From: Deltaproteobacteria bacterium RIFCSPHIGHO2_02_FULL_43_33
GTDB lineage: Bacteria; Desulfobacterota; GWC2-55-46; UBA9637
Direction: 5' to 3'
NCBI GenBank assembly: GCA_001798165.1
Contig: MGRL01000004.1
Span: 1,922-59,325 of the forward strand
DNA: 57,404 nucleotides
Part shown: positions 29,061-48,747 of the stretch, piece by piece
How positions within the stretch are numbered: the first letter of the stretch is position 1
Layout of the letters: every line of letters begins with the position of its first letter
Position numbers and translations under genes: made by a program
Notes under the pieces: model-generated
The model's input: the letters and a program-made list of their open reading frames with translations, nothing else
Told to the model about the DNA's origin: nothing
The model's database searches: none

Positions 29061-29081
29061 AATTTATTCATAGGAGGGTGC

Positions 29082-31707: not shown

Positions 31708-34700
31708 ATGAAAAAAGATATTGGCGAATTTGTAAAAAAATATCCTGCAGCCATAGAGACAGTAATTGGCATATCGGCTATTGCGTTTTTGGTATATACA
31801 ATGCGCTCTATGTTGATAACGGGTGAAGCAACACTCATCCACGACAACCTCTTATGGAATTATCCAATCTTTCAATTCTTTGCTGAAAATATAATCAATG
31901 GTCATTTTCCCATATGGGATCCATTCAGCCATGCCGGCGAGCCCTTCTATCCTATCATTGGGCAGATGAGGCTTTTTGAGCCCGTTGCTCTTTTAACTAT
32001 ATACTTGGGGCAATTTATCACGCATGACATTGTCATGCTGTTTAACTGGAATCGTTTTATCCAAAGTCTCATTATGGCCTTTGGGGTATATATTGTTTTT
32101 CGTCCATTGACAGCGAATCTTTTTATCAAACTTTCTCTGATACCCATTTTACTCTTCTCTTCATTTTTCCTTGGTTCATTCAGACAAGATGCCATCTTGA
32201 ATCAATTCCTCTGGCTTCCTTTTGTTGCCTACTTTCTGCTTCGTATTATTTATTATAAAGAGTGCCGCTGGCATAACTGGCTCCTGCTTGCCGCTATTAT
32301 TGGCCTTAACTGGCAATCCTATTTTTTTACCGGCACATGGATATTTCTTCTGTTTTTTGTTTTAGGCATTATTCTTTTTTACAGGAATTTATTAGCGGCA
32401 CTCTTTAAATCTAAAATGATCGTATTAAAACTTACAGCAGCGGCTGTTATTATTTTTGCCATGGCTGTGCCAAATATTATCCTCATGATGGAAAAGGATA
32501 AGTATGTATTTCCTGCAAGAATGGTAGATATTTCTAAAATGCAGATTCTAGGAGGAGGGCCATTACAATACGAAAACGGATATTCTTCGGCTACAGCATC
32601 TGGTATAAATATGCCGTATAATTTTATTGCTTTTACAGGGACATTTTCAACCATATGGGACTTTATTCAAATTATATCGCCAGATGGAAATAATTATGTT
32701 GGTTGGCCTTCCAGGACCGGATGGGGACACCCTTCAGAGGCGTATATGTATCTTGGTTTTTTGCCGTGGGCAATTGCTCTATTGGGTCTTGTGGCAGGAA
32801 GGCATGATCTGAAGCGGTTGTGGCTGTTAATTCTTATATCTTTTGGATTGTTAATGATAGGCCCTCCCGGAGGTTTGCATAGGTTGCTATATTATGCATA
32901 CCCACCTATGTGGTTTTTGAGACATACTCATGCCCTTGTCTTGTTTTTTATTTTTGCCTTCTTATATTTTTATGTTTTGGGTTTAAATCATATTTTTCAG
33001 ACATGGGAGGGCAGAGTTTTTCCCTCCCACAATTCGCAAGGCCCCCTCAGCCGTTTTATTAAAAACAGTAAAGTGTGCAGAGTTGCCGCTTTTTTTATAC
33101 TTTCTGCCTGTATGGTTGCATCTGTCTATTTGATGACAAAATTGACATATCCCGTAACAAACTATCTGTTTGGTTTTATCATTCTAATCTTTGCTGTTTA
33201 TTGGCTCATAAGAAAGGGTTTGGGCGAAAAGGGTTTATATATGAGTTTAGTAGTAAGCCATATAGCAATAGTTCTTGTATTGTCTCCAAATACATTTAAA
33301 TTTATAAGATATATAATCCCATCATTAGGGCTTCCGCTTGTATTATTTATATTTATAAAATCACGAGAAAGCCTTTCCTCCAAATTTAAACATTATGCGC
33401 CAATAATTCTATTATCTATATTTAGCATTAGTTTAATCAGCGACCTTGTTTATAGCCTTAGAAAATCTTCTTTTCTGTATCAAGGTGAAAAACATCCCGG
33501 CATTACACTTAATATTAATACAACACCACAACCGCCTTTGTTGCCTCAATACAGACTTCTTGAGCCGCATAATTACGCTGCTTATTCTGAACAAGGCGTG
33601 CGGTATCTTTCCCTTGCATACAGGCAGCCTTTTGTTTTTTCTCCTATAATGGAGCCTGACTATTCTGCTTCTTATGTGCATGTAAAGAAGGCTTTTAACG
33701 GGTTAACCAATAAAACTTTTGAAGATCGGGTTATATCTCCAGACGGAAGCTTTTTGCCTAAACAGTTCACATATCATCAAGAAGGAAGTGGCGGAAAAAC
33801 AGAAAGAAATATTAGCTCCGAATGGCTCAAGGATGGGAGCTCCTCTGTTTTATTAGCCCCATCTGATGTAGGTGATTCTTATATAGCATATCAGACATCG
33901 CAGATTGAAGAAATAAGAGGTCAATATGTCAGGCTGTCGCTATGGGTAAAAAGCCGTAATAAGTCTGAGCAGGCTATTAAAGCGGAAATTCAGGTTGATG
34001 ACGGCCCTATAGCTTCAAAACTTTATGATAATAGCGGCGATTGGGAGCATTTTACAATTGGAAAATATATTGATAAGGACGCAGCAAAACTGACCATAAA
34101 ATGCAACATCAGCTCCTCTGCCACTGCGCCTGCATATCTTGACGGACTTGCTGTAGAGATAGTAGAGATTAAGCCGGATAAGATTGACGATGTCTTAAAG
34201 TCTAAGAGGTGGAGCAGCTTTTTGCTGCTTAAAAAATATTTTGCCCTTATTAATATGGGCATTCCGCCTTTAGCTTTAGAAGAAATGTTTGCAGTCGGCA
34301 AGCCTATGTTTCAATTTAAGCAAGGCGCTATTCAAGTAGAAGAAAGCAAAACCGCAACCTTTTTGAAACAATTAGGTTCTGATAAATCTGTAGAGTTACT
34401 GCAGAAGTTTATAATAATAAATGAACAGGTTGAACCATTGTTAGGTAAATTTATAATATCTCCCGCAGACTACGAAAAGAAAGGCCAAACAGTTTCTGAT
34501 ATGCAAAAGCAAGGAAGTTTTACATATGCCATTGAAAGATATAACTACAATTTCTTTGAAATGAAGTCTTCTGCAGATAACGACGGCATTCTCTACTGGG
34601 CAGATGGATATGATAAGAGCTGGCATGCATATATAAACGGGAAAGAGGTTCCAATTTATAGGACAAATATAAATTTTAAGGCAATTAGCCTTCCTAAAGG

Positions 34701-34845
34701 AACAAATACTATTAAGTTTATTTATAAACCCGTATGGTTTAAAGCTACCTTAATTTTCTTTTTTGGAGTATTTATTATATGTATTTTGGTGGTTACTACG
34801 ACATCAATTATATTGAGAGTTAAGAAACTCACTTATAAAGCATAA
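31708..34845 (+). CDS. YfhO-like GT-C-fold membrane glycosyltransferase paralogue 1, with a CBM-like insert
   Basis: N-terminal HDNLLWNYP...GHFPIWDPFSHAGEPFY, many TM helices, C-terminal WADGYDKSWHAYINGKEVPIYRTNINFKAISLPKGTNTIKFIYKP, then a terminal TM helix. Confidence 0.65.
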   Translation: MKKDIGEFVKKYPAAIETVIGISAIAFLVYTMRSMLITGEATLIHDNLLWNYPIFQFFAENIINGHFPIWDPFSHAGEPFYPIIGQMRLFEPVALLTIYLGQFITHDIVMLFNWNRFIQSLIMAFGVYIVFRPLTANLFIKLSLIPILLFSSFFLGSFRQDAILNQFLWLPFVAYFLLRIIYYKECRWHNWLLLAAIIGLNWQSYFFTGTWIFLLFFVLGIILFYRNLLAALFKSKMIVLKLTAAAVIIFAMAVPNIILMMEKDKYVFPARMVDISKMQILGGGPLQYENGYSSATASGINMPYNFIAFTGTFSTIWDFIQIISPDGNNYVGWPSRTGWGHPSEAYMYLGFLPWAIALLGLVAGRHDLKRLWLLILISFGLLMIGPPGGLHRLLYYAYPPMWFLRHTHALVLFFIFAFLYFYVLGLNHIFQTWEGRVFPSHNSQGPLSRFIKNSKVCRVAAFFILSACMVASVYLMTKLTYPVTNYLFGFIILIFAVYWLIRKGLGEKGLYMSLVVSHIAIVLVLSPNTFKFIRYIIPSLGLPLVLFIFIKSRESLSSKFKHYAPIILLSIFSISLISDLVYSLRKSSFLYQGEKHPGITLNINTTPQPPLLPQYRLLEPHNYAAYSEQGVRYLSLAYRQPFVFSPIMEPDYSASYVHVKKAFNGLTNKTFEDRVISPDGSFLPKQFTYHQEGSGGKTERNISSEWLKDGSSSVLLAPSDVGDSYIAYQTSQIEEIRGQYVRLSLWVKSRNKSEQAIKAEIQVDDGPIASKLYDNSGDWEHFTIGKYIDKDAAKLTIKCNISSSATAPAYLDGLAVEIVEIKPDKIDDVLKSKRWSSFLLLKKYFALINMGIPPLALEEMFAVGKPMFQFKQGAIQVEESKTATFLKQLGSDKSVELLQKFIIINEQVEPLLGKFIISPADYEKKGQTVSDMQKQGSFTYAIERYNYNFFEMKSSADNDGILYWADGYDKSWHAYINGKEVPIYRTNINFKAISLPKGTNTIKFIYKPVWFKATLIFFFGVFIICILVVTTTSIILRVKKLTYKA

Positions 34846-34853
34846 AAACATAT

Positions 34854-34886
34854 TATAAACCTATCCCCATCGTCAAGACAAAAAAA
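34854..34886 (-). repeat. 33-nt promoter-like inverted repeat, left copy
   Basis: Its rc, TTTTTTTGTCTTGACGATGGGGATAGGTTTATA, matches 36991-37023 at 29 of 33 positions. Confidence 0.8.
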
Positions 34887-35030
34887 CAGGGTTGTATTTG
34901 GTGGAAAGGAGATGGGGATAGAGTAAAATGTGATTGATGTAAGGATGTTATTATTTTGGACCGGCATTTGTTGAATTTCAGAACTTCTATATGGTGTGTA
35001 TGAAAACAAATGGATATGGAGCTATTATAG

Positions 35031-36104
35031 ATGGTTGAATCTGTAAGAAATAATTTCCAGAGAAAGCATGGTCTTATAAGATTTGGCCGGTGGCTTATAT
35101 TTTTACTGATAGGTGGAGTCCTTCTATTCTTTATATGGTTAGCTATGCCCATAGAAGACTTTGATTCGGAAAGGCTTATTATTGGTGAGTCTACTGCCTA
35201 TGTTTCTTTAAAATTGAATTTAAAAGACCGTGGTATAAAGAGTCTTCTGAATATTGTTAATGATATGTATATGAGAAATTCGCCGGCGGCCCGGGCTATT
35301 CCGTATCTTTTGCCACATAAAATTTCAGCCGGGATAATCTATAATATTGACAATCCGAAAAAACACGACTATCTGGTAATTGCCGATATCGGCAAGCGGA
35401 TAAGGCTTCTTAATATTATTGGGAGGGTATTACCATATTTTACGATCAAGAATCTCACTGTTGAATATGCTGCATATCATGGCTACAGGGTGATGATTCT
35501 TGGAGGCAAAAACTTACAAGAAATAAGCCTTGCTGTAGTTTATGGAAAAATAGTTGCCAGTAATAATATTGAATTTCTCAAAAAAGCCCTTGATAATGTT
35601 GCTGAAGGGAAGAATTCTTTCTTTGAACAGCCTGCAATCAATTATCTCTATCGTACCGCATCCCGATATGATGGAGTAGTTCTTGTTAACAATATTAGCA
35701 GCCGGCTTACGAGGATTGTTAGAGATGCCGAGGATAAATATCATTACAGTATTTTCCCATCGGTAGATACTGTAGCCGCTATTGCAGCAGGTGTGGATAT
35801 TGTGGATGAAGATAGGGTTGAGGGCGAGATGGTTTTATCTCAATATCATTCGAGTGAGAGTGAAGTGGTTGGTGAAGACATGCGGTTTTTTGCAGGGTTT
35901 TTTCGTAGGATTCTTAGGGCATATGATATAGATATCCATGGTGATGTAACTATACAGGATAACAATGTGCGCTTCTTTTTTAAGGGCGAAGGCTTTAGGG
36001 CATTATGGGAAAAGATTCTAAAAGGAGGTTTCTCTCATGAAAAAACATCTTTTAATCGCACTGAGCATTATCTTTTGGCTCATACCTTCTGTGAGTGTGG
36101 CTGA
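35031..36104 (+). CDS. membrane-anchored periplasmic protein, unknown function (paralogue of the next gene)
   Basis: N-terminal TM helix. Segments IVASNNIEFLKKALDNV and DIVDEDRVEGEMVL align with the next protein. Confidence 0.55.
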   Translation: MVESVRNNFQRKHGLIRFGRWLIFLLIGGVLLFFIWLAMPIEDFDSERLIIGESTAYVSLKLNLKDRGIKSLLNIVNDMYMRNSPAARAIPYLLPHKISAGIIYNIDNPKKHDYLVIADIGKRIRLLNIIGRVLPYFTIKNLTVEYAAYHGYRVMILGGKNLQEISLAVVYGKIVASNNIEFLKKALDNVAEGKNSFFEQPAINYLYRTASRYDGVVLVNNISSRLTRIVRDAEDKYHYSIFPSVDTVAAIAAGVDIVDEDRVEGEMVLSQYHSSESEVVGEDMRFFAGFFRRILRAYDIDIHGDVTIQDNNVRFFFKGEGFRALWEKILKGGFSHEKTSFNRTEHYLLAHTFCECG

Positions 36105-36969
36105 GAAAGAATCCACGCTTCACAGAGATGCGCTTGTCGCATTTCATATTGTGAATGACTCAAGAGATCCCGGAGTTTCCTGGCTGATGACTAATTGGCT
36201 TGCTCAGATTAAGGCATCCCGGAGGATTTCACAACAAGAAAAACAGGCTTTTGGGGAGCTATTTCCGAATATGCCTCGAGATATTGAAGGCGGTATTATA
36301 GATCAGGATACCATGATAGTTATTGCTCCATTAATATCAAAGAATAGCATTTCGGAAGATACCCTGATAAACCTAATAAAGAAAGACATACCTATGAAAA
36401 GGTTTAGTTATAAAGGCTATGCAGGATATCATAGAATAGGAGAAGGAAAAATGCACATATCTGCTTTTGCTTTAAGCAAGAAATATGCAGTTCTTGCCAG
36501 CAATAGCGACTATATTAAAAAAACAATAGATATTATGGAAAACAAGAAAGAAAGATTGTCTGATGATTCCGGATATAAGGAGACCTTGTCCCTCCTTCCA
36601 CCGAAAGCTGACATTATGATTTTTGCTAATAATAAAGATAAGGGGTTTTCTCGAATATTGAAGGGATGGGAGAAAAAGTGGAAAATGACCGTTTTCCTTT
36701 CAGCACCTTACCTTGATTCCATGGGCTTATCTTTTGATGTTATTAATGAGGATAAGATGAAAGGAATGCTTGCCTTTAAATGCTCCCAGAAAAATAGAAT
36801 TCCGGATGTAGTAGATGACGCAAGATTTTTGGGGGAGGTATTGAGGAGAAAGTTTGCAAAAGAAAAAATAAAGTATACTTCTAAAGTGACTTTAAAAGAC
36901 AACTATGTTTTTTTAGAAGTGGAGATTTCCGGCATGAAACCTCTATGGATAATGCTTTTTAATCAGTAA
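36037..36969 (+). CDS. secreted periplasmic protein, unknown function (paralogue of the previous gene)
   Basis: AAGGAGG 8 nt before the ATG. Signal peptide MKKHLLIALSIIFWLIPSVSVA. Segments VLASNSDYIKKTIDIM and DVINEDKMKGMLAF. Overlaps the previous gene by 68 nt. Confidence 0.65.
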   Translation: MKKHLLIALSIIFWLIPSVSVAEKESTLHRDALVAFHIVNDSRDPGVSWLMTNWLAQIKASRRISQQEKQAFGELFPNMPRDIEGGIIDQDTMIVIAPLISKNSISEDTLINLIKKDIPMKRFSYKGYAGYHRIGEGKMHISAFALSKKYAVLASNSDYIKKTIDIMENKKERLSDDSGYKETLSLLPPKADIMIFANNKDKGFSRILKGWEKKWKMTVFLSAPYLDSMGLSFDVINEDKMKGMLAFKCSQKNRIPDVVDDARFLGEVLRRKFAKEKIKYTSKVTLKDNYVFLEVEISGMKPLWIMLFNQ

Positions 36970-36990
36970 TATTCCATTAAGAACATCTCA

Positions 36991-37029
36991 TTTTTTTGTC
37001 TTGACAATGAAGATAGGTTTAGCTAACTT
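36991..37029 (+). promoter_or_regulatory. 33-nt inverted repeat, right copy, containing a sigma70-like promoter (TTGACA 37001-37006, 17 nt, TAACTT 37024-37029)
   Basis: Direct reading. Lies about 300 nt upstream of the YfhO-2 start. Confidence 0.4.
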
Positions 37030-37325: not shown

Positions 37326-40300
37326 GTGAAAATATTTATTAAACAATATGAGTGGATAAAGAACATTTTTATTAAAGCAAATTGTGATGAGATTGGATTG
37401 AAAAAAATAGCTGTGGAACAAAAAACAAGTGTGGACGAAAGAAAACATTGGTTTAAACAAAATGCAACAGTAATTGTATCTTTAATAGCTTATTTTTATA
37501 TTATGTGGGATTTCTTGATTGGGCGAGTATATTTTTCATCCGATTTTTATCATATCCACTTAGTATTTGAGTTTGCCTATAAGGCTTTGGATAAAAGTTT
37601 CTCATTACCTACATGGCTACCCCTTTTCCAAGGAGGGAAAGCAATGTTTGGAGATATGGCGAATAGTTATTCGCCCTTTGGTATTGATTTTATTTTTACC
37701 TATGTGTTTTCAAAGTTGCTGGATTTAGATCGTACTGTCGGGCTTGTGTTGATAGATACATGGCGTATGGTGTTGTTGAATGTTTTCTTTGCCTTTGGTT
37801 GTCGTCAATTCGCGCGCGAATTCTTAAAACTCCGCTTTAGTGTTGATTTTGTATTTTTTATTACTCTATTTGTAGGAGCTTCTTTTTTACCTCACAGGCC
37901 AATCTTTGTAATAGCAAATGTTTTTTCACCATGGATACTTTTATATCTAACCCGTATTGTTATTAATTCCCCTGATAGATGGTTGCATAATTTAGCAGGT
38001 TTAACTCTTGCTGTTGTAGGAAGTGTTTTTCATCAGTTCAATATTCAAACAACCATCGTGTTTCCTTACATAATATTCTATTTTATTGGTTTATTACTGT
38101 TTTTCCCTGGTAAAATTGTCCAGTTTTTTGCAGTATGGAAAAGACGCTTTGCTATAGTTTTCGTTTCTATTGTAATTATAGCAGCTGTATTGCCACTTGT
38201 TAGTGAATATAATTATTTTGATAAGTATAATCGTAAAATACTTTATCCGGGAGAAACAGTTGAAAGTTCAATAAATAATACTGTTTACAATCTTGATGAT
38301 TTTGTCCAAGAACGTTTTGAATTTCAAAAATTATTATCTTTTTTATTTCCTTATCCTGCCACATTGGAACGTGTTACAAATATGACTAATGGTATGCCTG
38401 GAATGGTTATGCATAATTTTCAATATTTTGGGGTTCTCGCGGCTATTCTCATGTTAATTGGCATTATATTTAGTCGAAACTATTGCCGTTATCCAGTACT
38501 TACAGGAATCATACTATATATGTTGTTTGCTACCATAGAGAGATCTCCTTTCTTTTTAACTGCCTGGCATGCACATGTGCCAATGACGCGTCATTTTACA
38601 TTTATACAATTACATCTTGCACCATTATTTGCTGTTCTTGCAGGTTTTGGAATGGATAAAGTCCTTACTGTGATGTCAAAAAGAAAAGTTAATTTTTGGT
38701 TAGGAAGGATTACTTTTGTTTTTGTTTTATTTGGCAGTGCCTATGTATCTTATCAAATGATTCAGGATAGTACGTTTTCTTCAGCCAATCAAGGTTATTT
38801 ATATAGTATCTTTTTTATTCTATTGACAATTATTGGAATTCTTGGAGTGTTTCAGTTTACAAACCCCTATTTGCGGTTTCGTGTTTTATTTTTTATTGCT
38901 TTAATAGATATACTTTCTTTTAACCATATTATAAAAACTTATGTAATCAACTCTGGGCGAGGGAACGGTCCTTGGATTTATACCCAGTCTGTTACTTATG
39001 ATAATGTTCTTCCAGATATATCAGTGCTTAATAATTTTCATGAGTTTTCCCCATTTCCTACAGAGGCATATTCTATGTGGGTAAGGCCCACTTTTTACTT
39101 TCCTGAGATGTATAGATATGCGGTTATAGGAAATAAAAGTTTTTATGATGTGCTGAGGAATACAACAGAGCAAAATAGAAATATGATTTCTGGTTTTACG
39201 CTGCCTCGTGTTTTTGTAGTCGATGCTGCGGTGGAGGATCCAACCGGAGATATTGCAAGAAAATATTTATCGAACGATAACGCTGAGCAGATTATGGGGA
39301 ATGCAATATTTCTTAATGGACAAGTTACAACTGGTAAAGATGCGATAGTAGATGTGAATAATATTTCAGAATTTATTAAACCGCCCAGGGTAGTGGTTGA
39401 AAATGAAACTAATTTTTATGATATTTTGCCGGAGATGGTAAGTTCTAATATAAAATTTGATGATGGAACAGCAGGTAGTATATTTGACAACGATAAGTCT
39501 ACTAATGTAAAGCTAAATAACTCTAATATTCCAAATGAAAGTCGGTGGTGGTTTCAAGTTGACTTTGGTGTTGGAAATGAAAAGATTGTTAATATTGTAA
39601 AAGTGACAGATGGTGTGGGGTCATGTCCAGGGGGAATGCAGTGTCCATGGCAGTTATCTTTTATAGAAGGTAGTTACAATGGTAGAGATTGGAGGCGCGT
39701 AGGCTATCTTACTTTTCATGATAGGCAAATACTTTCTGAAACAACTACTGAATGGCAATTTATAAATGATGAAGGTTTCCGTTATTATAAAATTATTATT
39801 GAAAAAAATGACAAACTTCCAGAGTTATTGCCGCGGATATCATCTATAAGTCTTAGTGGCAAGAGAAGACGATTGGTTAATGGTTTGGTGCATCGTCATA
39901 CAGAAAAAGTGCCACTACTTCGTTTTAAAAATAATGGACTTTCTTCAGATGGGCAGTATTATTTATTCTCTTATTTCTTTCCCCGTCCAGTTGGAGTGGA
40001 TATTTCAACAAATCCTACTCAGGGGTTTGGATTTAACTATAAAATTAAGTGGGATTCAGAAGATAGAGAAACTCAACTGCGTCCAGCATGGGATAACAAT
40101 TGGCATAGTGAAAACCTGTTTCAAATAGGCTATCTTGTAGATGGTCAACTCACAATTAATATACCAAAGGATAAAGTTATAGAGTTTCGTAAAGGTATTT
40201 TAGATATTGCTATTGAAACTCCAGACACCGGAGGGGTAAGGGTGCTGGACTATGGAGCTGATAACCTGCTTGTGACAGTTGAGAGATCAAAATCAGGCTG

Positions 40301-40553
40301 GCTGTACTATTCCGATACTTGGGATAAATATTGGACAGCTACTGTCAATGGTGAAAAAGCATCTATTTATAAGGCTAATCTCCAGTACAAAGCAGTATAT
40401 ATTCCCCCTGGTAAATCAACAGTTCTATTTTTATATAAACCAAAATCTTTCTTAACCTTTATTGTAATTAGTTATATATTGCAGTTCATTATACTTTTAG
40501 TTTGGTTCAAGACATGGCAAAGCAAGCCGCTATCAAAAAAAGGAGAAAATTAA
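37326..40553 (+). CDS. YfhO-like GT-C membrane protein paralogue 2, with an F5/8 type C (discoidin)-like insert
   Basis: GGAGG 7 nt before the GTG start; many TM helices. Insert WWFQVDFGVGNEKIVNIVKV...GRDWRRVGY...FRYYKIIIEK. C-terminal YSDTWDKYWTATVNGEKASIYKANLQYKAVYIPPGKSTVLFLYKP. Confidence 0.65.
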   Translation: MKIFIKQYEWIKNIFIKANCDEIGLKKIAVEQKTSVDERKHWFKQNATVIVSLIAYFYIMWDFLIGRVYFSSDFYHIHLVFEFAYKALDKSFSLPTWLPLFQGGKAMFGDMANSYSPFGIDFIFTYVFSKLLDLDRTVGLVLIDTWRMVLLNVFFAFGCRQFAREFLKLRFSVDFVFFITLFVGASFLPHRPIFVIANVFSPWILLYLTRIVINSPDRWLHNLAGLTLAVVGSVFHQFNIQTTIVFPYIIFYFIGLLLFFPGKIVQFFAVWKRRFAIVFVSIVIIAAVLPLVSEYNYFDKYNRKILYPGETVESSINNTVYNLDDFVQERFEFQKLLSFLFPYPATLERVTNMTNGMPGMVMHNFQYFGVLAAILMLIGIIFSRNYCRYPVLTGIILYMLFATIERSPFFLTAWHAHVPMTRHFTFIQLHLAPLFAVLAGFGMDKVLTVMSKRKVNFWLGRITFVFVLFGSAYVSYQMIQDSTFSSANQGYLYSIFFILLTIIGILGVFQFTNPYLRFRVLFFIALIDILSFNHIIKTYVINSGRGNGPWIYTQSVTYDNVLPDISVLNNFHEFSPFPTEAYSMWVRPTFYFPEMYRYAVIGNKSFYDVLRNTTEQNRNMISGFTLPRVFVVDAAVEDPTGDIARKYLSNDNAEQIMGNAIFLNGQVTTGKDAIVDVNNISEFIKPPRVVVENETNFYDILPEMVSSNIKFDDGTAGSIFDNDKSTNVKLNNSNIPNESRWWFQVDFGVGNEKIVNIVKVTDGVGSCPGGMQCPWQLSFIEGSYNGRDWRRVGYLTFHDRQILSETTTEWQFINDEGFRYYKIIIEKNDKLPELLPRISSISLSGKRRRLVNGLVHRHTEKVPLLRFKNNGLSSDGQYYLFSYFFPRPVGVDISTNPTQGFGFNYKIKWDSEDRETQLRPAWDNNWHSENLFQIGYLVDGQLTINIPKDKVIEFRKGILDIAIETPDTGGVRVLDYGADNLLVTVERSKSGWLYYSDTWDKYWTATVNGEKASIYKANLQYKAVYIPPGKSTVLFLYKPKSFLTFIVISYILQFIILLVWFKTWQSKPLSKKGEN

Positions 40554-40559
40554 GTTCAA

Positions 40560-43421
40560 TTGATATCTCGACGCACCTTTCATCTATTAGTTCATCCGAT
40601 TGTCTTACCTATTTACCCTGCCATATTATTAATATTAATATATCATGAGGTTTTTATTTGCCGTACTGCAATTTTTACGCACGATACAGTCAATTGGTAT
40701 GCGAACTTCAATTATTTTGTGTCAAGCTTAGCTCAGGGTAGTTTGCCACTATGGGATCCGTATGCGTTTAGTGGAGCGCCATTCTATTTAAACGTCAATA
40801 TTGTAGGGGCATTGGACCCTACCGTGTTGCTTGCCGTACCTCTGATACGATTTTGGGATATCTCCATATTAGATATTTATAATATTCATTTTCTTGTTCG
40901 TTTATTTATATTTTATTTAGGATCGTATGCATTATTTTGTTATATCTCTCGTAATTATTGGGCTTCTTTGCTGGGTGCAATATTTACTTTATACACTAGT
41001 GCCCCCAATGCTTTTTGGCAGCATGGTTCAATGATTATGATAACATATGTTCCACTTATCATCCTGTTTTTACTTCAATTTGTGTCACCTGAAACTCCTA
41101 AAAAATCGAAAGGCCTGATTTTTATTGCGCTATGCTACCTTATTGGTATTTCATTCAACATATATTTGCCAAGCTATTTGTTAATGTATTTGAGTTTCAT
41201 TCTTATCTATCTTTTTATAGCGAGGTTTATAGGACTTAAATCTATTCGTGATATCGTTATTTCAGCAGGAGTATGGAAGTTGCTAATAGGAATTCTTGTG
41301 TTTTTTATTGTAGCGGGCCCCTTTATTGTTTCTACCTTTAAAATATTGCCAAGCCTTTCAGAAAATTTCAGTCTTACACGGTTTGATATACCTAATAACA
41401 GTAGTAATTCGGAGATAACAATTCATTCTTATCCGCTGAAATTAAATGAATCTGCTCCTTCCCGTTCTACTATATATAACTTGTTGAGTTTTTTGATACC
41501 TGGTACGGACACGGGATTTTTTGTGGAAAGCAGACCCCCCGGTTATACTGAGAATTTTTTGCCCTTTGCTGTGATTCCAGTAATGATAGTTTTCCTTTTT
41601 TTTAAACGGACGAATTCACATTACAAGGGATTATTTTTATTTGTTTTGATTATTACTGGCTTATATTGGCTTAGTCCAAATTTATTATACAGCCATATCT
41701 TGCGATATTTTCCGGGAGCCAGCACCATAAGACAAATGCATAATTTCTTGGGTTATTTTATTTTATCATTTGGTGCATTGTTAGCAATATGTTTATCAGA
41801 AGCCATAGCAGTAATATCTAATTCCAAGAATAGGCATAAGTTATCACCTATTGTTGTTGCTATATTTACACTGGCTTATATAGTTGCACTGTATGTATAT
41901 TGGCAACATATTAGAAATATGGAAATTGCTGGAACATTAGCAAGTCCAATATATAGATTGGCACTCCAAAATAATATTATTTCCAACGGATGGCAAGTAA
42001 TTATTATCTGCATGTTGATAACATTATATTTCTTTGCATCTTATAATTTTCGGATATACATTGCTATAACGATTGCGGGTATTATTATCTATGACTTGGT
42101 AGATTTTAATAGTAAATTTAAGACGTATACAATTCAGCCAAGCATTAGTATGAGTGAAGATTACATACACCATGATAGAGAATTCAAATATAATGAGATC
42201 CGGGTTCCTTTTGTTCCACGACATACAGTCTTTTGGGGTTATTTGCCATCACTTTATCGGATACCAACAGCCATTCCCGGCTATATGAATACATACATGT
42301 CGCTTACCCGCAGGGCTTATGATTTTATCCGTTTTACGTCCGCTGAAAGAAGTAAGATAGTTAGTGGTGTTGGTTCAAGGCGGTTTGGGTTTTTTGATAA
42401 GTATATCATGGCTAAAAATAGCAGAGATGCGTTAAATTTAGTTGCTGGAATGCCTAAGGAAAGCCTGCACGATGTAATAGTGCTTGAAGAAGACCCTATT
42501 CAAATAGTTTCAAAGCTCAAAGCTGTAGAACGCGTTGATAGAGATTCAAATTCTCCTGCTTTGCAAACGTTATCACAAATTCGTGAAGCTATGTTAAGTG
42601 GTAAAGGTCAGTATCTTGCGGATTTTTATGATAAAAGCGAATATATAAATTATAAAGACTATCCTCGTGCATCTGATGGATTTTTATATATTGCACTTTT
42701 AAGTAATCATCCGGCAAGAGATTGGCCCTGGGATAAAGAGCATATTGGATATTTTCATATTTTATTTGGAAATATTTATATTTCTTATTATTCGTTTATC
42801 CATGGATATCATACTAATCCTTCAATTAGGACTGACTTTAAAGAGGATAAAGTTTGCTATACGGATATTGAAGAATGGCAGATGAAGCATATTATGCCTG
42901 GTTTCTATGAACAGATATATAATAAATATCCTTACCAGTGCGATTTACAGAAAGTTGAAAGAGAATTGATAGTATCACCAGAACTGCAAGGTGCATTTGT
43001 TACAGATGATATAGGAAAACCAGAGAAGGATAATATAATTCCTGGCTTCACCGTTGTGAGTTTGGATCCGGCCAAGGTTTCACCAAGCCGTTCTCCTTAT
43101 GGCCGGGACGAGCCAACGGAAGTAATTGCCTTTGGACCAAACATGATTAGTTTTAAGGTACAAAACAGTAAACCTGGGCTATTTTACTATGCAGATTCCT
43201 ATTCCAGCGATTGGGAGGCAACGGTTTCCGGTTCTCCAGCTTATATTTTTAAAGCAAACTTTAATTATAAGGCGGTATTTGTTCCAGCTGGGAATCATAC
43301 CATAACTTTTTCATTCAACCCCAAGCTATATATTTTACTTTTTAAGATTTTCATTGTGGTTTCAATTTTACTGATGCCGGTTCCGGTTGTTGCTCTTTTA
43401 TTATACGCTAAGAAGAGGTAA
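40560..43421 (+). CDS. YfhO-like GT-C membrane protein paralogue 3
   Basis: THDTVNWYANF...GSLPLWDPYAFSGAPFY and C-terminal YADSYSSDWEATVSGSPAYIFKANFNYKAVFVPAGNHTITFSFNP. TTG start is uncertain. Confidence 0.65.
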   Translation: MISRRTFHLLVHPIVLPIYPAILLILIYHEVFICRTAIFTHDTVNWYANFNYFVSSLAQGSLPLWDPYAFSGAPFYLNVNIVGALDPTVLLAVPLIRFWDISILDIYNIHFLVRLFIFYLGSYALFCYISRNYWASLLGAIFTLYTSAPNAFWQHGSMIMITYVPLIILFLLQFVSPETPKKSKGLIFIALCYLIGISFNIYLPSYLLMYLSFILIYLFIARFIGLKSIRDIVISAGVWKLLIGILVFFIVAGPFIVSTFKILPSLSENFSLTRFDIPNNSSNSEITIHSYPLKLNESAPSRSTIYNLLSFLIPGTDTGFFVESRPPGYTENFLPFAVIPVMIVFLFFKRTNSHYKGLFLFVLIITGLYWLSPNLLYSHILRYFPGASTIRQMHNFLGYFILSFGALLAICLSEAIAVISNSKNRHKLSPIVVAIFTLAYIVALYVYWQHIRNMEIAGTLASPIYRLALQNNIISNGWQVIIICMLITLYFFASYNFRIYIAITIAGIIIYDLVDFNSKFKTYTIQPSISMSEDYIHHDREFKYNEIRVPFVPRHTVFWGYLPSLYRIPTAIPGYMNTYMSLTRRAYDFIRFTSAERSKIVSGVGSRRFGFFDKYIMAKNSRDALNLVAGMPKESLHDVIVLEEDPIQIVSKLKAVERVDRDSNSPALQTLSQIREAMLSGKGQYLADFYDKSEYINYKDYPRASDGFLYIALLSNHPARDWPWDKEHIGYFHILFGNIYISYYSFIHGYHTNPSIRTDFKEDKVCYTDIEEWQMKHIMPGFYEQIYNKYPYQCDLQKVERELIVSPELQGAFVTDDIGKPEKDNIIPGFTVVSLDPAKVSPSRSPYGRDEPTEVIAFGPNMISFKVQNSKPGLFYYADSYSSDWEATVSGSPAYIFKANFNYKAVFVPAGNHTITFSFNPKLYILLFKIFIVVSILLMPVPVVALLLYAKKR

Positions 43422-43431
43422 AGGTTCAAAA

Positions 43432-46269
43432 GTGAGGTCGCAGATTTTTTACCGTATTCTTCGTCATCCCATCGTTCTTCCAATTTATCCAGCCAGTGTA
43501 CTAATACTTTTATACCAGAATGTCTTTATAAAGCAAGAGGCTATCTTTACCCACGATACCATTCATTGGTATGCTAACTTCAACTATTTTATGCTCTGCC
43601 TGACACGCGGAATCCTTCCACTATGGGACCCATATAGTTGGTCTGGAGCGCCTTTCTATCTAAATCACAATGCTGTTGGGACGCTAGACCCAACTGTACT
43701 AACAATGATACCACTGATAAAGTATTGGAATGTTTCTGTATTGGACATTTACCACATACATTTTCTATTACGGTTGCTAGTTTTTTATATAGGTGCCTAT
43801 GCACTTTTTCGGTATATCTCTCGGAATGATTGGGCTGCCTTGATAGGGTCAACAATTGTTTTGTTTGTCATGGCGCCAAACTCGTTTTGGCAGCATGGTT
43901 CTATGCTAATTGTAACTTATGCACCATTGATAATACTTTTTCTGCTCAATCTAATCTCACCAAGCACTTCCTCTAAATCAAAAGGTTTGTTTTTTATAGC
44001 TTCATGTTATTTGTTTGGTCTCTCATTCAATATGTACCTCCCAAGTTATATAATTATCTATTTAAGCTTGATGTTTATTTATCTTTTTGTGAATAGAACA
44101 CTTAATATTTACAAACTTCGTAAAATAACAAGAGTTATAGGAATCTCTAATATACTTGCAGGAATACTTATATTCTTAATTATGGCTGGTCCATTTATTT
44201 ATTCTACGGTTAAGTTAATGTCAAAAGTTGATGAGAACTTTGCCTATGGTAGATATGCCCGTCTTGGAGAACCACCCACATCAGATACACTGATACATAC
44301 TGCGGAATTGTCTTTAACGGAGGATAGTTATAGAGATCGTTCAACATTTCATAATCTTTTAGCGATATTATTTCCTGGTCCAGACATAAGGTTTTTCATA
44401 GAAAGTGCTTTAGCACGTGAAAACTTTCTTTTTTTTGGGTTGATACCAATAATCCTTGTTTTTCTTTTTTTCAAACGCGCTCAATCACCAAATAAGGGAC
44501 TTTTTCTGTTTCTTATTATTGCTATTGGTTTATATATGTTCAGCCCTCCTTCTTGGTATAATAAAATATTGCAATACTATCCGACTGCCAGGACGATTAC
44601 GCAGTTGCATAACTTTTTAGGTTTTTTTATTTTATCATGGGGCGCTTTAATAGCTATTTGCTTTTCTACTGTTCTTGATATGATAACCCATAAAAGCAGA
44701 ACAGAGAGGGTTTCCTTAATCTGGCTTGCGATTTTGGCAATAGCTCAAATATTGGTAATTTTCTTATACTTCAGCTTTGTTCATACCGAACTAATAGAAC
44801 GTTCACTAAGCAATAATTTCTTAATATGGATACAAGAATCTATTGTAGCACATGGATGGTTGTTAATTATTTCATACTTTATAGTTGCGTTATTTTTGTT
44901 ACATAAATCTTCTTTGTTTCGATTTTTTCTTATAGTAGTTATGGTAGGACTTACATTCTATCAATTGGTAGAGTTTAATATTAACCTCCAACGTTATGTC
45001 ATCCAGCCAGGTGAGATTGCACGTACTGGGTATATCCATTATGACAGGGAATTTAGCTATAAACCAATACGTATTCCTTTTGTATCCAGGCATACTACCT
45101 TTTGGGGATTCCTCCCCTCCCTTTACCGTATTCCGGCAGCCATCCCGGCCTATTTTAATGACTATTTTGTTGTAGGTCGCCGAAGCTATGATTTTATTCG
45201 TTTCGTTTCTGCAGAACGACAGAAGATTGTTAGTGGCATCGGGGCAAGACGATTTGGTTTTTTTGATAAGTTTACTGTGGCTAAAGACAGTATCCACGCG
45301 CTATCTCTTATGAGCCGCATGCCTACAGATATGTTGCATGAGACTTTGGTGTTGGAGGATGATATTGCAAAAGTTTTCCCTCAGGCAAGGGCAATTGAGC
45401 GTGTCGATGTTGATACAATACCGATCTCCGCTGATGTAGAGCGTGGTAGTAGTCAATATTTAGCTGATTTCTATGACCGTATGGAAAGAATTGATTACAA
45501 AACTCCAAATACACGTAAGGTGAAAGGTTATTTGGAGATTGACATCCCACAGCAGCATCCTATTTTGGATTGGCCATGGGATATAAAGCATATTGGATAT
45601 TTTCAAATTATGTTTGGCCCTTTTCAATCAGTGTCTTCATACAATCCCATGAGGTACTATCCTAACCCAGGTATTCGTACCAATGTTGGCAGAGACTACA
45701 TTTGTTATATTGACTTTCAGGAATGGTTGGTAAAACACGCTATGCCTGGTTTCTATGAACCGATATACAATAAATATCCTTATCAGTGCGATTTACAAAA
45801 AGTTGACAAAGATTTGATAGTATCACCAGAACTGCAAGGTGCCTTTGTTACAGATGACATAGGAGGACCAGAGAAGGATAATATAATCCCCGGGTTTACC
45901 GTTGTGAGCTTAGATCCGGCCAGGGTTTCACCAAACCGTTCTCCATATGGCCGGGACGAGCCAACGGAAGTGATTGCGTTTGGGCCTAACATGATTAGTT
46001 TTAGGGTACAAAACAGCAAGCCGGGACTGTTTTATTATGCTGATTCATATTCCAAAGATTGGAAGGCAACAGTTTCCGGTTCCCCTACCTATATCTTTAA
46101 AGCAAACTTTAATTATAAGGCGGTATTTGTTCCGGCTGGGAATCATACCATAACTTTTTCATTCAACCCCAAGCTATATATTTTACTTTTTAAGATTTTC
46201 ATTGTGGTTTCAATTTTACTGATGCCTGTTCCGATTGTCGCCCTTTTATATTCTAAGGAAAGAAAATAA
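43432..46269 (+). CDS. YfhO-like GT-C membrane protein paralogue 4 (tandem duplicate of paralogue 3)
   Basis: Collinear with paralogue 3. GTG 43432 is preferred (VRSQIFYRILRHPIVLPIYP parallels MISRRTFHLLVHPIVLPIYP). The ORF opens at 43387. Confidence 0.65.
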   Translation: MRSQIFYRILRHPIVLPIYPASVLILLYQNVFIKQEAIFTHDTIHWYANFNYFMLCLTRGILPLWDPYSWSGAPFYLNHNAVGTLDPTVLTMIPLIKYWNVSVLDIYHIHFLLRLLVFYIGAYALFRYISRNDWAALIGSTIVLFVMAPNSFWQHGSMLIVTYAPLIILFLLNLISPSTSSKSKGLFFIASCYLFGLSFNMYLPSYIIIYLSLMFIYLFVNRTLNIYKLRKITRVIGISNILAGILIFLIMAGPFIYSTVKLMSKVDENFAYGRYARLGEPPTSDTLIHTAELSLTEDSYRDRSTFHNLLAILFPGPDIRFFIESALARENFLFFGLIPIILVFLFFKRAQSPNKGLFLFLIIAIGLYMFSPPSWYNKILQYYPTARTITQLHNFLGFFILSWGALIAICFSTVLDMITHKSRTERVSLIWLAILAIAQILVIFLYFSFVHTELIERSLSNNFLIWIQESIVAHGWLLIISYFIVALFLLHKSSLFRFFLIVVMVGLTFYQLVEFNINLQRYVIQPGEIARTGYIHYDREFSYKPIRIPFVSRHTTFWGFLPSLYRIPAAIPAYFNDYFVVGRRSYDFIRFVSAERQKIVSGIGARRFGFFDKFTVAKDSIHALSLMSRMPTDMLHETLVLEDDIAKVFPQARAIERVDVDTIPISADVERGSSQYLADFYDRMERIDYKTPNTRKVKGYLEIDIPQQHPILDWPWDIKHIGYFQIMFGPFQSVSSYNPMRYYPNPGIRTNVGRDYICYIDFQEWLVKHAMPGFYEPIYNKYPYQCDLQKVDKDLIVSPELQGAFVTDDIGGPEKDNIIPGFTVVSLDPARVSPNRSPYGRDEPTEVIAFGPNMISFRVQNSKPGLFYYADSYSKDWKATVSGSPTYIFKANFNYKAVFVPAGNHTITFSFNPKLYILLFKIFIVVSILLMPVPIVALLYSKERK

Positions 46270-48747
46270 ATGAAAAGAAGCATAAAAGAAGGTAGCAAGT
46301 ATACTGTTCCTTTACTTATTTTGATAAGTTTCACTCTATGGTTTGCATACGATATATATACTTTTAAAAAATATTTTTCCCATCCCGATTTTAGACTTTA
46401 TTACCCTTTTCGCCAATGGTTTTCCCAACGGTTGTTAAATGGAGAATTTCCTTTATGGAATCCATATTGGGGGATAGGCCAGCCAGCGGTGGTATGGGCT
46501 ACTATTCCTATTGATATCTACACTATTCTGGAAATTATCTTTGGACCGCAATATCAGTATTTTCAAACTATTCAATTAGCACTCATCTTATTAGCCGGCT
46601 TTTACGCGTTTGTTAAATTAGGATTCACCCCTATGGTATCAACTGCTGGCATATTGCTGTTTTTTATGACCCCGTGGGTTACTTATTTTTATTTTTATTT
46701 TATGAAACCACATTCCTTTATTGCGCATATATTGCTATTTCTTTTTATTTACAAATGGTTTGGAACAGAAAATAAAAAGTACCTATTTTGTATTGTCTGG
46801 ACAATCATTTTTAGCATGTTTGGCACAAAGCTTGAATTTTGGTTTTATCAAACTATTTTCTATATGTTTTTTTCTACTATGGCAAGTTTGGTTTTTTATT
46901 CAGGTAGCCTGCTTCGTTCTATTAAGATGGTTTCTTTGGTGATGTTAGCAATAGGTATAGGTATAACTGCTCACCTATGGCAATTGAATATACTTATTAG
47001 GATTATAGACACCACTGGTCGTATAGGGGAGCATAGCATGTACAATCTGTTTTCTTTAGAAATGTATCATAACTTGTTGATTAGCATAGGCGAATCTGGG
47101 TTATTAAAAATAATTGGAATTGGCTCTTTTTTATATTTGGGAGTTGTGCTGAAAAGGCGTTTTTCTTGGATATTTTTATTGTTAGGCATTGCAATACTAT
47201 CATATTTCGCTCAGAACTGGCATATCTCCTTTACAAAAAATCCTGTGTTTTATGGAACCATACTTGGGATAATTCTTTCGCTAAGTTTTACCAGAGGCTT
47301 TAAATGGAAAGATTATATTAAATGTGGCCTTATATTCCTCTTATTAATATATTATTGGTGTCGCACCGAAAGAGGTGATTTGGGAGAGATGGAAGTTATG
47401 CGCTCAGCTCCCTTTGCCTTTAAGATATTAGTTGCTGCCCTTGTCTGGACAGGTTGCATGCAGTTTTGGAGAAATAAATTGGCAAAACTGGCATTTTTTT
47501 CCATACTTTTTATATTGTTAATACGAGATCAAGGACAGATTATTCTATCGTATCTGACCGGGCTGCTCTGGATACCGACTAGAGATAATTACATAATTGA
47601 TTTTGGAGTAGCAGTACTAGCTGTTTTGGGTTTAGCGTCTTTGAGGTTGCAGGTACCTATCATTTTACTTAATAAACCAAACTGGGGTAAGTGGTGGTTG
47701 ATTGTATCGCCTATTCCCATTGTTTCTATAGGTGTTATTGTTTTATCAGCATCTTCTAATTTCTACTATTCACATCCAATGATGCAAAATCCCCCTTCTG
47801 ATTATGCAAGCTATGCAGGATTGTCTAAAATAAGGGAACTTATGAAAGAGTTACATGATTTGCCCCAGACACGGATATTCTTTTTCAATGATGATTGGTG
47901 GGGTTTTACCTATGGGATGGGGAGTTCTTTGGTAGAAGGAGTCAGCGAGGTAACCCTCTACGATAGTCTTGTACCTAAAAATTATAAAGACTGGACTGTA
48001 TATAGAAGATTGGGTATAAGACCAGAACAGCAATGGAGTGGTTATCCTAATGAGTATACCGAAAAAACCATTTCAAAACTTCCCTCCAAAAACACTTTAG
48101 GTTATTCTAATTTGGAAATTTATTTAAATAGTTTGGTGCTGGCACCTTCAATAGATAAGAATGATCTAATATTGTTGGGAGTGAAATATGTTGTAAAATT
48201 GTCTTCAATATCAGATCGGATGGCAAAAGATATTGCCATTGAGGATATTAAAGAGAGAAAAGAGGTTACATATCCAGGTATAGATGGGTTTCTATCTACG
48301 GCTAGGATGAGTAATTTTTTGCCGAGGGCTTATTTAGTATACGGTATTCCCCCAGGCGGAATAGATGAATTTATAAATGAGTTGAACCCTACTGTGAATG
48401 AACATAGCATCTCGACAAAATCATTAAATTTACCATTTAGCCCAGCTCATATTGAAAAATATGAACCTGAGAGAGTATTTATAACGGTCGAAGCAAAAGA
48501 GGATGCCTATCTGGTAGTTTCAGATATTTATCACCCTTTTTGGCATGCAAGACTTGATGGACATGAGATAGACATCATACCCGCTTTTTATATTTTTAGA
48601 GGGATAAAAATTCCGCAAGGGAAACATTTTATAGATTTTTATTGCAAAATTCCATATTTTAAGATAAGCATAATTATATCGTTGTTAGTTATTCTTTTAT
48701 GTGTTATATCCACAGTGTATTATTTTTGGCTATTAAAAAACAAGTAA
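46270..48747 (+). CDS. YfhO-like GT-C membrane protein paralogue 5 (most divergent)
   Basis: GEFPLWNPYWGIGQP and C-terminal SDIYHPFWHARLDGHEIDIIPAFYIFRGIKIPQGKHFIDFYCK. The ATG directly follows the paralogue 4 stop. Confidence 0.6.
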   Translation: MKRSIKEGSKYTVPLLILISFTLWFAYDIYTFKKYFSHPDFRLYYPFRQWFSQRLLNGEFPLWNPYWGIGQPAVVWATIPIDIYTILEIIFGPQYQYFQTIQLALILLAGFYAFVKLGFTPMVSTAGILLFFMTPWVTYFYFYFMKPHSFIAHILLFLFIYKWFGTENKKYLFCIVWTIIFSMFGTKLEFWFYQTIFYMFFSTMASLVFYSGSLLRSIKMVSLVMLAIGIGITAHLWQLNILIRIIDTTGRIGEHSMYNLFSLEMYHNLLISIGESGLLKIIGIGSFLYLGVVLKRRFSWIFLLLGIAILSYFAQNWHISFTKNPVFYGTILGIILSLSFTRGFKWKDYIKCGLIFLLLIYYWCRTERGDLGEMEVMRSAPFAFKILVAALVWTGCMQFWRNKLAKLAFFSILFILLIRDQGQIILSYLTGLLWIPTRDNYIIDFGVAVLAVLGLASLRLQVPIILLNKPNWGKWWLIVSPIPIVSIGVIVLSASSNFYYSHPMMQNPPSDYASYAGLSKIRELMKELHDLPQTRIFFFNDDWWGFTYGMGSSLVEGVSEVTLYDSLVPKNYKDWTVYRRLGIRPEQQWSGYPNEYTEKTISKLPSKNTLGYSNLEIYLNSLVLAPSIDKNDLILLGVKYVVKLSSISDRMAKDIAIEDIKERKEVTYPGIDGFLSTARMSNFLPRAYLVYGIPPGGIDEFINELNPTVNEHSISTKSLNLPFSPAHIEKYEPERVFITVEAKEDAYLVVSDIYHPFWHARLDGHEIDIIPAFYIFRGIKIPQGKHFIDFYCKIPYFKISIIISLLVILLCVISTVYYFWLLKNK

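Follow-up and report, generated by a model that had tools for sequence, protein, structure and literature searches.

Five divergent YfhO-like membrane proteins, predicted GT-C glycosyltransferases, and a conserved sugar-enzyme gene module in a deltaproteobacterial genome

Introduction

What would a row of YfhO-like membrane glycosyltransferases do in a bacterium with an outer membrane? The question is raised by contig MGRL01000004.1 (assembly GCA_001798165.1) of Deltaproteobacteria bacterium RIFCSPHIGHO2_02_FULL_43_33 (GTDB lineage Bacteria; Desulfobacterota; GWC2-55-46; UBA9637), of which we analysed 57,404 nucleotides (nt; forward-strand positions 1,922 to 59,325; hereafter the window, with coordinates counted from its first base). 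An initial annotation, made from the letters alone, had seen at 31708-48747 five large open reading frames (ORFs) for YfhO-like proteins of the glycosyltransferase (GT) C class (GT-C), had remarked that they stood in a diderm without partner genes in the window, and had proposed a periplasmic glycan-elaboration system. In Firmicutes, those YfhO proteins that have been studied experimentally act with CsbB and GtcA in glycosylating teichoic acids (PMC5836110, PMC7389260). Among bacterial membrane protein families that lack a proven function outside Firmicutes, the YfhO-like GT-C proteins form one of the largest, and a "YfhO-like" dark family was described as new in 2023 (PMC10584680). We report here that the five proteins can be placed in the YfhO-like branch by profile comparison and predicted structure, that the first of them belongs to a gene module conserved across phyla, and that the five probably act on a surface polysaccharide.

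Five paralogous members of the YfhO-like branch

The array consists of the following ORFs.

31708-34845, plus strand: ORF1, YfhO-like GT-C protein 1, 1045 amino acids (aa)
37326-40553, plus strand: ORF2, YfhO-like GT-C protein 2, 1075 aa, of a divergent, rare subfamily
40560-43421, plus strand: ORF3, YfhO-like GT-C protein 3, 953 aa
43387-46269, plus strand: ORF4, YfhO-like GT-C protein 4, longest ORF 960 aa, 945 aa from the probable start at 43432
46270-48747, plus strand: ORF5, YfhO-like GT-C protein 5, 825 aa, nearest to ordinary YfhO length and architecture

All five have the lengths first reported, ORF4 being about 945 aa when read from a GTG codon at 43432 that follows a purine-rich stretch and on which gene callers agree. 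ORF2 to ORF5 are packed as in an operon, overlapping slightly or leaving gaps of 0-6 bases, and between ORF1 and the other four lie the genes of two N-terminally anchored paralogues (P357 and P310, below); scans for promoters and terminators did no better than on shuffled sequence. The five proteins align end to end at about 20% identity and are thus paralogues. ORF3 and ORF4 are 58% identical over 951 aa, their C-terminal ~130 residues are near-identical, far above the rest of both proteins, and a DNA repeat in their 3′ parts (42853-43152 and 45701-46000) is 87% identical over 300 nt; ORF4 is therefore a recent tandem duplicate of ORF3, and the likeness of the C-termini suggests that the C-terminal beta-sandwich is under stronger constraint or that gene conversion took place. 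Identical copies of these proteins occur on 26-34 contigs from many samples, and the same contig is present in two NCBI assemblies and many metagenomes.

The paralogues share one architecture: hydropathy indicates 9-15 helices, then a hydrophilic region of 300-500 residues, then one final helix. In the alignment an Asp directly after the first transmembrane helix (TM1) is present in 5 of 5 proteins, and P68, W70, P72 and G77 of the N-terminal loop (P.W.P....G) are invariant. The longer loop motif described in the initial annotation fits closely in four proteins, ORF2 retaining its P.W.P alone (PTWLP); the C-terminal motif described there (W.A..G...P.G...F), followed by a last hydrophobic helix, is seen in all five by alignment and hydropathy.

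Direct matches to the Pfam YfhO family (PF09586; model length 835 positions, gathering score 28.5 bits) are confined to profile positions ~737-835, that is, to the last ~90 residues of the window proteins: ORF1 (38.8 bits, residues 918-1016) and ORF5 (33.7 bits) exceed the gathering score, ORF2 (26.6 bits) and ORF4 (26.3 bits) fall just under it, and ORF3 reaches 25.7 bits only when its C-terminal fragment is scanned alone. Profile-profile comparison extends the likeness to the membrane core. The comparison set (A3) consists of distant ORF5 matches, including proteins that NCBI names YfhO family; three of its ten members scanned with PF09586 (P0195, P0192 and P0224) match two stretches at 78-110 bits, and in P0195 and P0224 the best stretch spans profile positions 26-599, above threshold. 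In hhalign, the ORF5 family (A2) aligns with A3 over essentially its full length (probability 100, E 8e-54, 695 columns, 21-823), the ORF1 family (A4) over the membrane core (probability 100, E 5e-42, 34-438), the ORF2 family (A5) over 36-519 (99.8%, E 2e-28) and at the C-terminus of ORF2 (964-1051; 99.3%), and ORF3 alone over 23-521 (99.7%, E 4e-27); ORF4 is placed through its identity to ORF3. When the window was scanned with a local hidden Markov model built from the independent YfhO-family proteins of A3, these five ORFs and no others matched (88-147 bits).

The Asp after TM1 is kept in 35 of 35 members of the ORF1 family alignment (D46), 28 of 33 in that of ORF5 (with Glu in 3 more), 6 of 7 in that of ORF2, and at least 90% of A3. 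Since ORF3 alone reaches 9117 representative clusters in phmmer (E<=1e-3), the YfhO-like superfamily must be very large; ORF2 has merely 7 close homologue clusters. No NCBIfam model matched any of seven window proteins scanned, and a PDB sequence search with a profile of the five proteins gave no meaningful match.

AlphaFold2 models were made for ORF1 and ORF5 and compared with the PDB by Foldseek. The best matches of ORF5 (predicted local distance difference test, pLDDT, 85.6; predicted template modelling score, pTM, 0.88) are all GT-C enzymes, namely AftD, STT3, PglB, EmbA/B and Pmt4, with no nearer solved structure, and its top 12 are AftD, STT3 and PglB (probability 0.99-1.00, template modelling (TM) scores 0.26-0.44); ORF1 (pLDDT 83, pTM 0.83) has GT-C matches to AftD, EmbC and EmbA/B. 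In the ORF1 model a beta-sandwich at ~657-821 superposes on the carbohydrate-binding modules (CBMs) CBM16, CBM61, CBM4-2 and CBM22 (TMt 0.70-0.76, root-mean-square deviation 3.3-3.7 Å), with which a weak Pfam match to CBM_4_9 (E 0.0075) agrees. For the insert of ORF2, pairwise alignments lead to the repeat region in P0049 and P0068 (Pfam F5_F8_type_C; E 2e-7 and 7e-8), and direct Pfam support comes from one weak match in 1 of 8 family members, so that a discoidin-like insert may be taken as a lead. PDB sequence searches with the periplasmic inserts of ORF1 and ORF2 found nothing. That the periplasmic domain should bear carbohydrate-binding modules speaks for a glycan as acceptor.

Profile-profile comparison, structure prediction and the conserved Asp thus bear out the family assignment originally made by eye: ORF1-5 are divergent members of the YfhO-like branch, predicted GT-C membrane glycosyltransferases.

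A module conserved across phyla

ORF1 is part of a conserved set of genes shared between phyla, the other members of which encode a GmhA-like isomerase, an HldE-like protein, a B12-binding radical S-adenosylmethionine (B12-rSAM) enzyme and three small membrane proteins. The link to gmhA-like, HldE-like and B12-rSAM genes, first drawn from proximity in the window, is upheld by their co-occurrence with ORF1 orthologues in distant genomes. The sugar-enzyme and small membrane protein genes of the window are as follows.

26104-27309, plus strand: DegT/DnrJ/EryC1-type sugar aminotransferase (PF01041, E 6e-120)
29016-29657, plus strand: SIS-domain GmhA-like sugar-phosphate isomerase (Pfam SIS_2), conserved module
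29699-30145, plus strand: u148, small membrane protein with at least 2 hydrophobic helices, conserved upstream of B12-rSAM genes
30138-31649, plus strand: B12-rSAM enzyme (Pfam B12-binding and Radical_SAM)
50050-50580, plus strand: u176, small membrane protein with 3 N-terminal helices, conserved module
50582-51136, plus strand: u184, small membrane protein, conserved module
52747-53697, plus strand: GSU2086-family protein (NCBIfam NF052581, 382 bits, above cut-off), with a weak ArgZ-like Rossmann match
54303-54779, plus strand: stand-alone nucleotidyltransferase, RfaE domain II-like (Pfam CTP_transf_like)
55568-57097, plus strand: HldE-like bifunctional protein (CTP_transf_like 34-159, then PfkB 197-487)

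A search of genome contigs with ORF1 found one locus, in a metagenome-assembled genome of Thermodesulfobacteriota (L008), the closest other genome. It keeps the order DUF362-DegT-SIS-u148-B12-rSAM-ORF1 at 78-93% identity (DegT 89%, SIS 84%, u148 78%, B12-rSAM 93%) and carries beyond ORF1 a 524-aa nine-helix protein, a 254-aa family 2 glycosyltransferase (GT2), a 37%-identical ORF5-type gene and a methyltransferase. In three distant loci (L006, L010 and L012) the ORF1 orthologue (57% identity) is the single YfhO-like copy; they share with the window the SIS protein (54-56%), u148 (37-38%), the B12-rSAM enzyme (37-39%, as also in L014), u176 (25-26%), u184 (34-36%), the stand-alone nucleotidyltransferase (74-75%) and the HldE-like protein (74-75%). 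Beyond these genes they encode a 262-aa GT2, a Wzx-like flippase, two rSAM/SPASM enzymes and a split transketolase, along with unannotated multi-helix (10-helix) proteins. Locus L013 has, in order, homologues of u148 (40%), u176 and u184, a YfhO-like gene, two B12-rSAM genes (80%), a 521-aa protein, a GT2, two ORF5-type genes, a DegT gene and a 1329-aa YfhO-related protein. Four consecutive YfhO-like genes stand in L014 with genes for a B12-rSAM enzyme, a nucleotidyltransferase (63%), a GSU2086-family protein (a 60% identical copy, adjoining CTP_transf_like and GT2 genes) and a GT2 with a DedA/VTT gene beside it; L011 has three YfhO-like copies, a JGI contig four or five, and the Scalindua locus L009 two, with a GT2 and many methyltransferases. 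Arrays of 2-5 YfhO-like copies thus recur among relatives. Our literature search found no paper on multi-copy YfhO arrays or on the association with B12-rSAM enzymes and small membrane proteins.

The three small membrane proteins deserve mention of their own: u148, u176 and u184 have no Pfam family, yet accompany B12-rSAM and YfhO-like genes across distant lineages, and their homologues are contiguous in L013 (955-2410). Homologues of u176 (25-33%) and u184 (27-38%) are found in L006, L010, L012, L009 and L013, those of u184 directly beside YfhO-like or B12-rSAM genes; the C-terminus of u176 has a weak HemN_C/winged-helix-like match. A GtrA flippase role for the three was considered and rejected, PF04138 (GtrA) giving no match to any of them even at E<=1.

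The GmhA- and HldE-like genes stay well under equivalog cut-offs. The GmhA-like protein scores 100 bits on TIGR00441 (gmhA; cut-off 209) and the stand-alone nucleotidyltransferase 106 bits on TIGR02199 (cut-off 181); the HldE-like protein, in which the usual domain order is reversed (nucleotidyltransferase first, PfkB kinase second), scores 120 bits on rfaE_dom_I (cut-off 345) and 85 bits on rfaE_dom_II (cut-off 181). No GmhB was found in the window, and GmhA and HldE have no equivalog-level match there. The HldE-like protein and stand-alone nucleotidyltransferase are well conserved in distant loci, and their substrate may not be heptose. The best NCBIfam match of the DegT protein is PseC-like and under cut-off. 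The B12-rSAM enzyme is probably a methylase or rearrangement enzyme; all its NCBIfam matches (BchE, HpnJ, P- and C-methyltransferases) are sub-threshold, and a link to hopanoid or ladderane lipids was rejected, given how far these matches lie under cut-off and the sugar-enzyme neighbours.

Partners absent from the window and present in relatives

In Pfam scans of nearly all window ORFs of at least 100 aa, no GT-A, GT-B, GT2, Wzx/Wzy or GtrA protein was found in the 57 kb, and when the GT2 and Wzx-like proteins from related loci served as tblastn queries, the window gave no match; on this the initial annotation was right. As a trait of the system the missing GT2 does not hold up, because 5 of 8 related loci have a GtrB/ArnC/dolichol-phosphate mannose synthase (DPMS)-like GT2 within ~5 kb of a YfhO-like gene (L008, L013, L009, L014 and the L006/L010/L012 type), directly adjoining it in three. 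The best PDB matches of these GT2s are GtrB, ArnC and DPMS, and their NCBIfam matches (PgfS, ArnC, PpgS, AglJ) are all under cut-off; to judge from such likeness, they are of the polyprenyl-phosphate class that partners GT-C enzymes. By analogy, the GT2 that would load the lipid carrier would have to be encoded elsewhere in this genome. An unannotated protein of 516-524 aa precedes a GT2 and an ORF5-type gene in both L008 (8905-10479) and L013 (7679-9229; 57% identity); the L008 copy is predicted to have nine helices. The window lacks this protein, which is a candidate for the flippase or polymerase of the system.

The host, as first supposed, has an outer membrane: the window encodes LptE, TolQ/R, TolB, Pal, a YbgF-like tetratricopeptide repeat protein and MurJ, with a TonB_2-domain protein in the position of TolA. 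Because LptE and Tol-Pal indicate a diderm envelope, a teichoic-acid acceptor is unlikely. The presence of YfhO in such a host is less odd than it had seemed, since annotations of the family are routine among diderms (Nitrospirota, Planctomycetota, Deltaproteobacteria, Latescibacterota, Omnitrophota and Bacteroidota, and on proteobacterial plasmids); a search of plasmids brought up YfhO-family genes from diderms only. In a Kiritimatiellae exopolysaccharide cluster, YfhO-family genes have been noted together with an undecaprenyl-phosphate (Und-P) mannosyltransferase and gtrA. The main surprise, YfhO in a diderm and without partners, therefore largely dissolves when the relatives are considered.

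A variable stretch distal to ORF1

The array and its surroundings also include the following genes.

35031-36104, plus strand: P357, one N-terminal hydrophobic helix or anchor, probably periplasmic, paralogue of P310
36037-36969, plus strand: P310, paralogue of P357 with an N-terminal signal or anchor, probably periplasmic
48790-49491, plus strand: u233, 2 hydrophobic helices, GC3 0.30, inside the low-GC3 block
49592-49978, plus strand: truncated methyltransferase remnant, 49% identical over 121 aa to the L008 methyltransferase

The G+C content at third codon positions (GC3) is 0.25-0.36 across 31.7-50 kb, against ~0.38-0.52 in flanking genes. We rejected the idea that low G+C merely reflects the amino acid bias of membrane proteins; because GC3 drops too, the A+T richness noticed at the outset is real and goes beyond amino acid usage. 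ORF2-5, P357 and P310 sit in a low-GC3 stretch unlike the closest relative: L008 keeps the genes through ORF1 and then carries different ones, so that the part distal to ORF1 is hypervariable, and in this the ORF2-5 stretch is similar to what is seen in the hypervariable portion of O-antigen or capsule loci. In L008 the methyltransferase (204 aa) follows the ORF5-type gene, whereas the window keeps only a truncated remnant. The paralogy of the two periplasmic-type proteins inside the array, proposed earlier, is confirmed (23% identity, E 5e-14); P357 has a weak DUF3352 match (E 1.4e-3), and neither has a homologue in any related locus examined. For u233 there is no Pfam match and no homologue in the related loci.

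Two other kinds of gene lie among the sugar genes. Two AAA_14+DUF4143 ATPase genes (27415-28593 and 51494-52615; 42% identity) each stand between long direct repeats: the pair 27175-27301/28716-28842 (127 nt, 89%) copies the 3′ end of the DegT gene, and the pair 51081-51380/52695-52994 (300 nt, 79%) copies the 5′ part of the GSU2086-family gene. In L008 DegT and SIS stand without an ATPase gene between them. From their repeats, the ATPase genes have the look of insertions of one gene each, in which the duplicated target is unusually long. Small PD-(D/E)XK, nucleotidyltransferase, HEPN and PIN genes (53890-54258, 54795-55142, 55175-55543, 4101-4490 and 382-813) are likely to be of toxin-antitoxin or defence type; the one at 55175-55543 is a 122-aa ORF that lay outside the Pfam scans, and the PD-(D/E)XK gene has a GC3 of 0.27.

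Comparison with known systems

The best-studied points of comparison are the Bacillus and Listeria proteins YfhO, GtlB and Lmo1079 (PMC5836110, PMC7389260, PMC8035078). In common with these, the window proteins have the C-terminal Pfam family, a homologous membrane core, a predicted GT-C fold, an Asp after the first helix, a large extracytoplasmic domain and a last anchor helix, and relatives of the locus have a polyprenyl-phosphate-type GT2 within a few kb; the likeness was drawn through Pfam and profile sets. They differ in that i) the host is a diderm without a teichoic-acid context; ii) there are five tandem copies; iii) the Pfam match is limited to the last ~90 residues; iv) no GtrA/GtcA-like flippase or GT2 is in the window; and v) CBM-like or discoidin-like inserts occur, and three copies exceed the known proteins by 100-250 residues. 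Component 27 of Durairaj et al. 2023 (PMC10584680), likened here by its description, is annotated as YfhO, lies apart from reference YfhO and has an STT3/PglB-like structure; its median length is 665 aa, against 825-1075 aa in the window.

The mycobacterial arabinosyltransferases AftD and EmbA/B/C are the best or near-best structural matches, combine a GT-C core with periplasmic carbohydrate-binding modules, and act as several paralogues on one polymer with a polyprenyl-phosphate monosaccharide donor; no sequence-level relation to the window proteins was detected (the PDB profile search was empty), and they superpose at TM-scores of 0.25-0.40 and belong to another organism and envelope. With Gtr-type O-antigen modification (GtrA, GtrB and a serotype-specific Gtr) and ArnC/ArnT of Gram-negatives the locus would share a periplasmic sugar addition from an Und-P-sugar that a GtrB/ArnC-like GT2 makes, since the GT2 of relatives matches GtrB and ArnC structures, whereas the window transferases are YfhO-like rather than Gtr-type or ArnT, GtrA was not found, and the genes are not phage-borne three-gene cassettes. 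The Bacteroidota YfhO is likewise a YfhO-family protein of a diderm with a predicted function; it is single, conserved and predicted to be essential, whereas the window copies are multiple, accessory and differ between close relatives.

Proposed function and alternatives

We propose, with moderate confidence, that ORF1-5 are periplasmic glycosyltransferases whose substrates are lipid-linked sugars and whose task is the building or decoration of a surface polysaccharide. We infer the donor type, the acceptor, the sugar and the activity of all five copies as follows. Each YfhO-like enzyme, in the inner membrane, would take a polyprenyl-phosphate-linked sugar on the periplasmic face and transfer it onto a glycan outside the cytoplasm, with a predicted catalytic role for the conserved Asp that follows TM1; the acceptor would most likely be a surface polysaccharide (O-antigen, lipopolysaccharide or exopolysaccharide); the ORF1 module would make and modify a nucleotide sugar through its GmhA-like isomerase, HldE-like kinase/nucleotidyltransferase and B12-rSAM enzyme, with the DegT aminotransferase nearby; and ORF2-5 would form a variable accessory set beside this conserved nucleotide-sugar module. 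The five paralogues may, as the initial annotation suggested, add sugars in sequence or as alternatives; of the five, ORF4 is a recent duplicate of ORF3.

Several points weigh against this proposal. The TM-scores to solved GT-C enzymes are modest (0.3-0.44), and the PDB copy searched holds no YfhO structure. A3 was gathered as distant ORF5 matches, which may favour a match, even if 3 of its 10 scanned members match most of Pfam YfhO independently. Because the GmhA- and HldE-like scores lie well below equivalog cut-offs, heptose as the sugar is a lead only. The window has no GT2, flippase or polymerase, and a three-component logic would be borrowed, by analogy, from relatives and Firmicutes. 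We know of no biochemically characterised YfhO-like protein from a diderm. Finally, Bacteroidota YfhO is predicted to be a protein O-oligosaccharyltransferase with a diphosphate-linked oligosaccharide donor (bioRxiv 10.64898/2026.07.27.740950), which by analogy would imply both a different donor and a different acceptor.

That prediction leads to an alternative that we consider unlikely, in which the YfhO-like proteins are protein O-glycosyltransferases or O-oligosaccharyltransferases acting, like PMT and PglB/STT3, on periplasmic, outer-membrane or S-layer proteins. STT3, PglB and Pmt4 are among the Foldseek matches; the preprint just cited argues that YfhO is the missing O-oligosaccharyltransferase of Bacteroidota general glycosylation; and the Scalindua locus L009 pairs two YfhO-like genes with many methyltransferases, while the S-layer protein of the anammox bacterium Kuenenia is heavily O-glycosylated by a transferase not identified in that paper (PMC5088730), a loose lead only, as the paper names no gene cluster. 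The secreted or anchored paralogues P357 and P310 inside the array would fit protein acceptors, but they are missing from all related loci examined. Moreover, the ORF1 module superposes on polysaccharide-binding CBMs, the AftD/Emb matches act on polysaccharide, and the GT2s of relatives resemble polyprenyl-monophosphate sugar synthases, which fits transfer of a monosaccharide better than of an oligosaccharide en bloc.

A different question is whether the five enzymes decorate a polymer made in the cytoplasm or build one themselves, as a periplasmic assembly line adding lipid-linked monosaccharides stepwise, like Aft/Emb or the ALG enzymes of the endoplasmic reticulum lumen. The lack of a cytoplasmic GT-A/GT-B gene in the window, the arrays of 3-5 YfhO-like paralogues in L011, L013, L014 and the JGI contig, and the fact that AftD, the best structural match, bears carbohydrate-binding modules as ORF1 does, all speak for stepwise building; yet at most four specificities are evident, ORF4 being a recent duplicate of ORF3, the single-copy relatives L006, L010 and L012 carry a Wzx-like flippase, which suggests a conventional Wzx-dependent polymer, and our view is limited to 57 kb of the genome. 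On balance we regard stepwise building as rather doubtful. Its boldest form, improbable in our estimation, would be a GT-C-only assembly line in the periplasm of a Gram-negative bacterium, made up of several YfhO-like enzymes that bear carbohydrate-binding modules, that makes a C-methylated, heptose-derived surface polymer from lipid-linked monosaccharides and without cytoplasmic GT-A/GT-B enzymes; its companions would be the B12-rSAM enzyme, the three small membrane proteins and the HldE- and GmhA-like enzymes, and it would parallel mycobacterial arabinan synthesis. It is highly improbable, by contrast, that some or all copies are inactive as glycosyltransferases and are instead scaffolds, or paralogues in decay, within a stretch gained by horizontal transfer. 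A truncated methyltransferase does lie at the distal end of the block, the window holds ATPase cassettes that were inserted between partial duplications of genes, the loop motif of ORF2 is divergent and its relatives are very few, and no GT2 partner is in the window; but all five ORFs are intact at 825-1075 aa, none having lost the P.W.P...G loop or the Asp after TM1, the identical proteins recur on 26-34 contigs from many samples, and ORF2-5 retain their tight, operon-like packing.

Implications

We wish to stress that this strain-variable locus for sugar synthesis, A+T-rich and from an uncultured groundwater bacterium, is real but fairly ordinary, similar loci being common in related uncultured bacteria. 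What the analysis adds is a recurring neighbourhood, in which YfhO-like genes accompany those for B12-rSAM enzymes, three small membrane proteins, HldE- and GmhA-like enzymes and, often, a GtrB-like GT2; it also adds arrays of three to five genes, and carbohydrate-binding modules in some copies, which point to a glycan acceptor. In Bacteroidota, a transferase has been looked for over more than 15 years, and YfhO-like proteins are candidates for it (bioRxiv 10.64898/2026.07.27.740950); the loci described here may supply hypotheses on surface-glycan diversity in uncultured Thermodesulfobacteriota, Nitrospirota and Planctomycetota.

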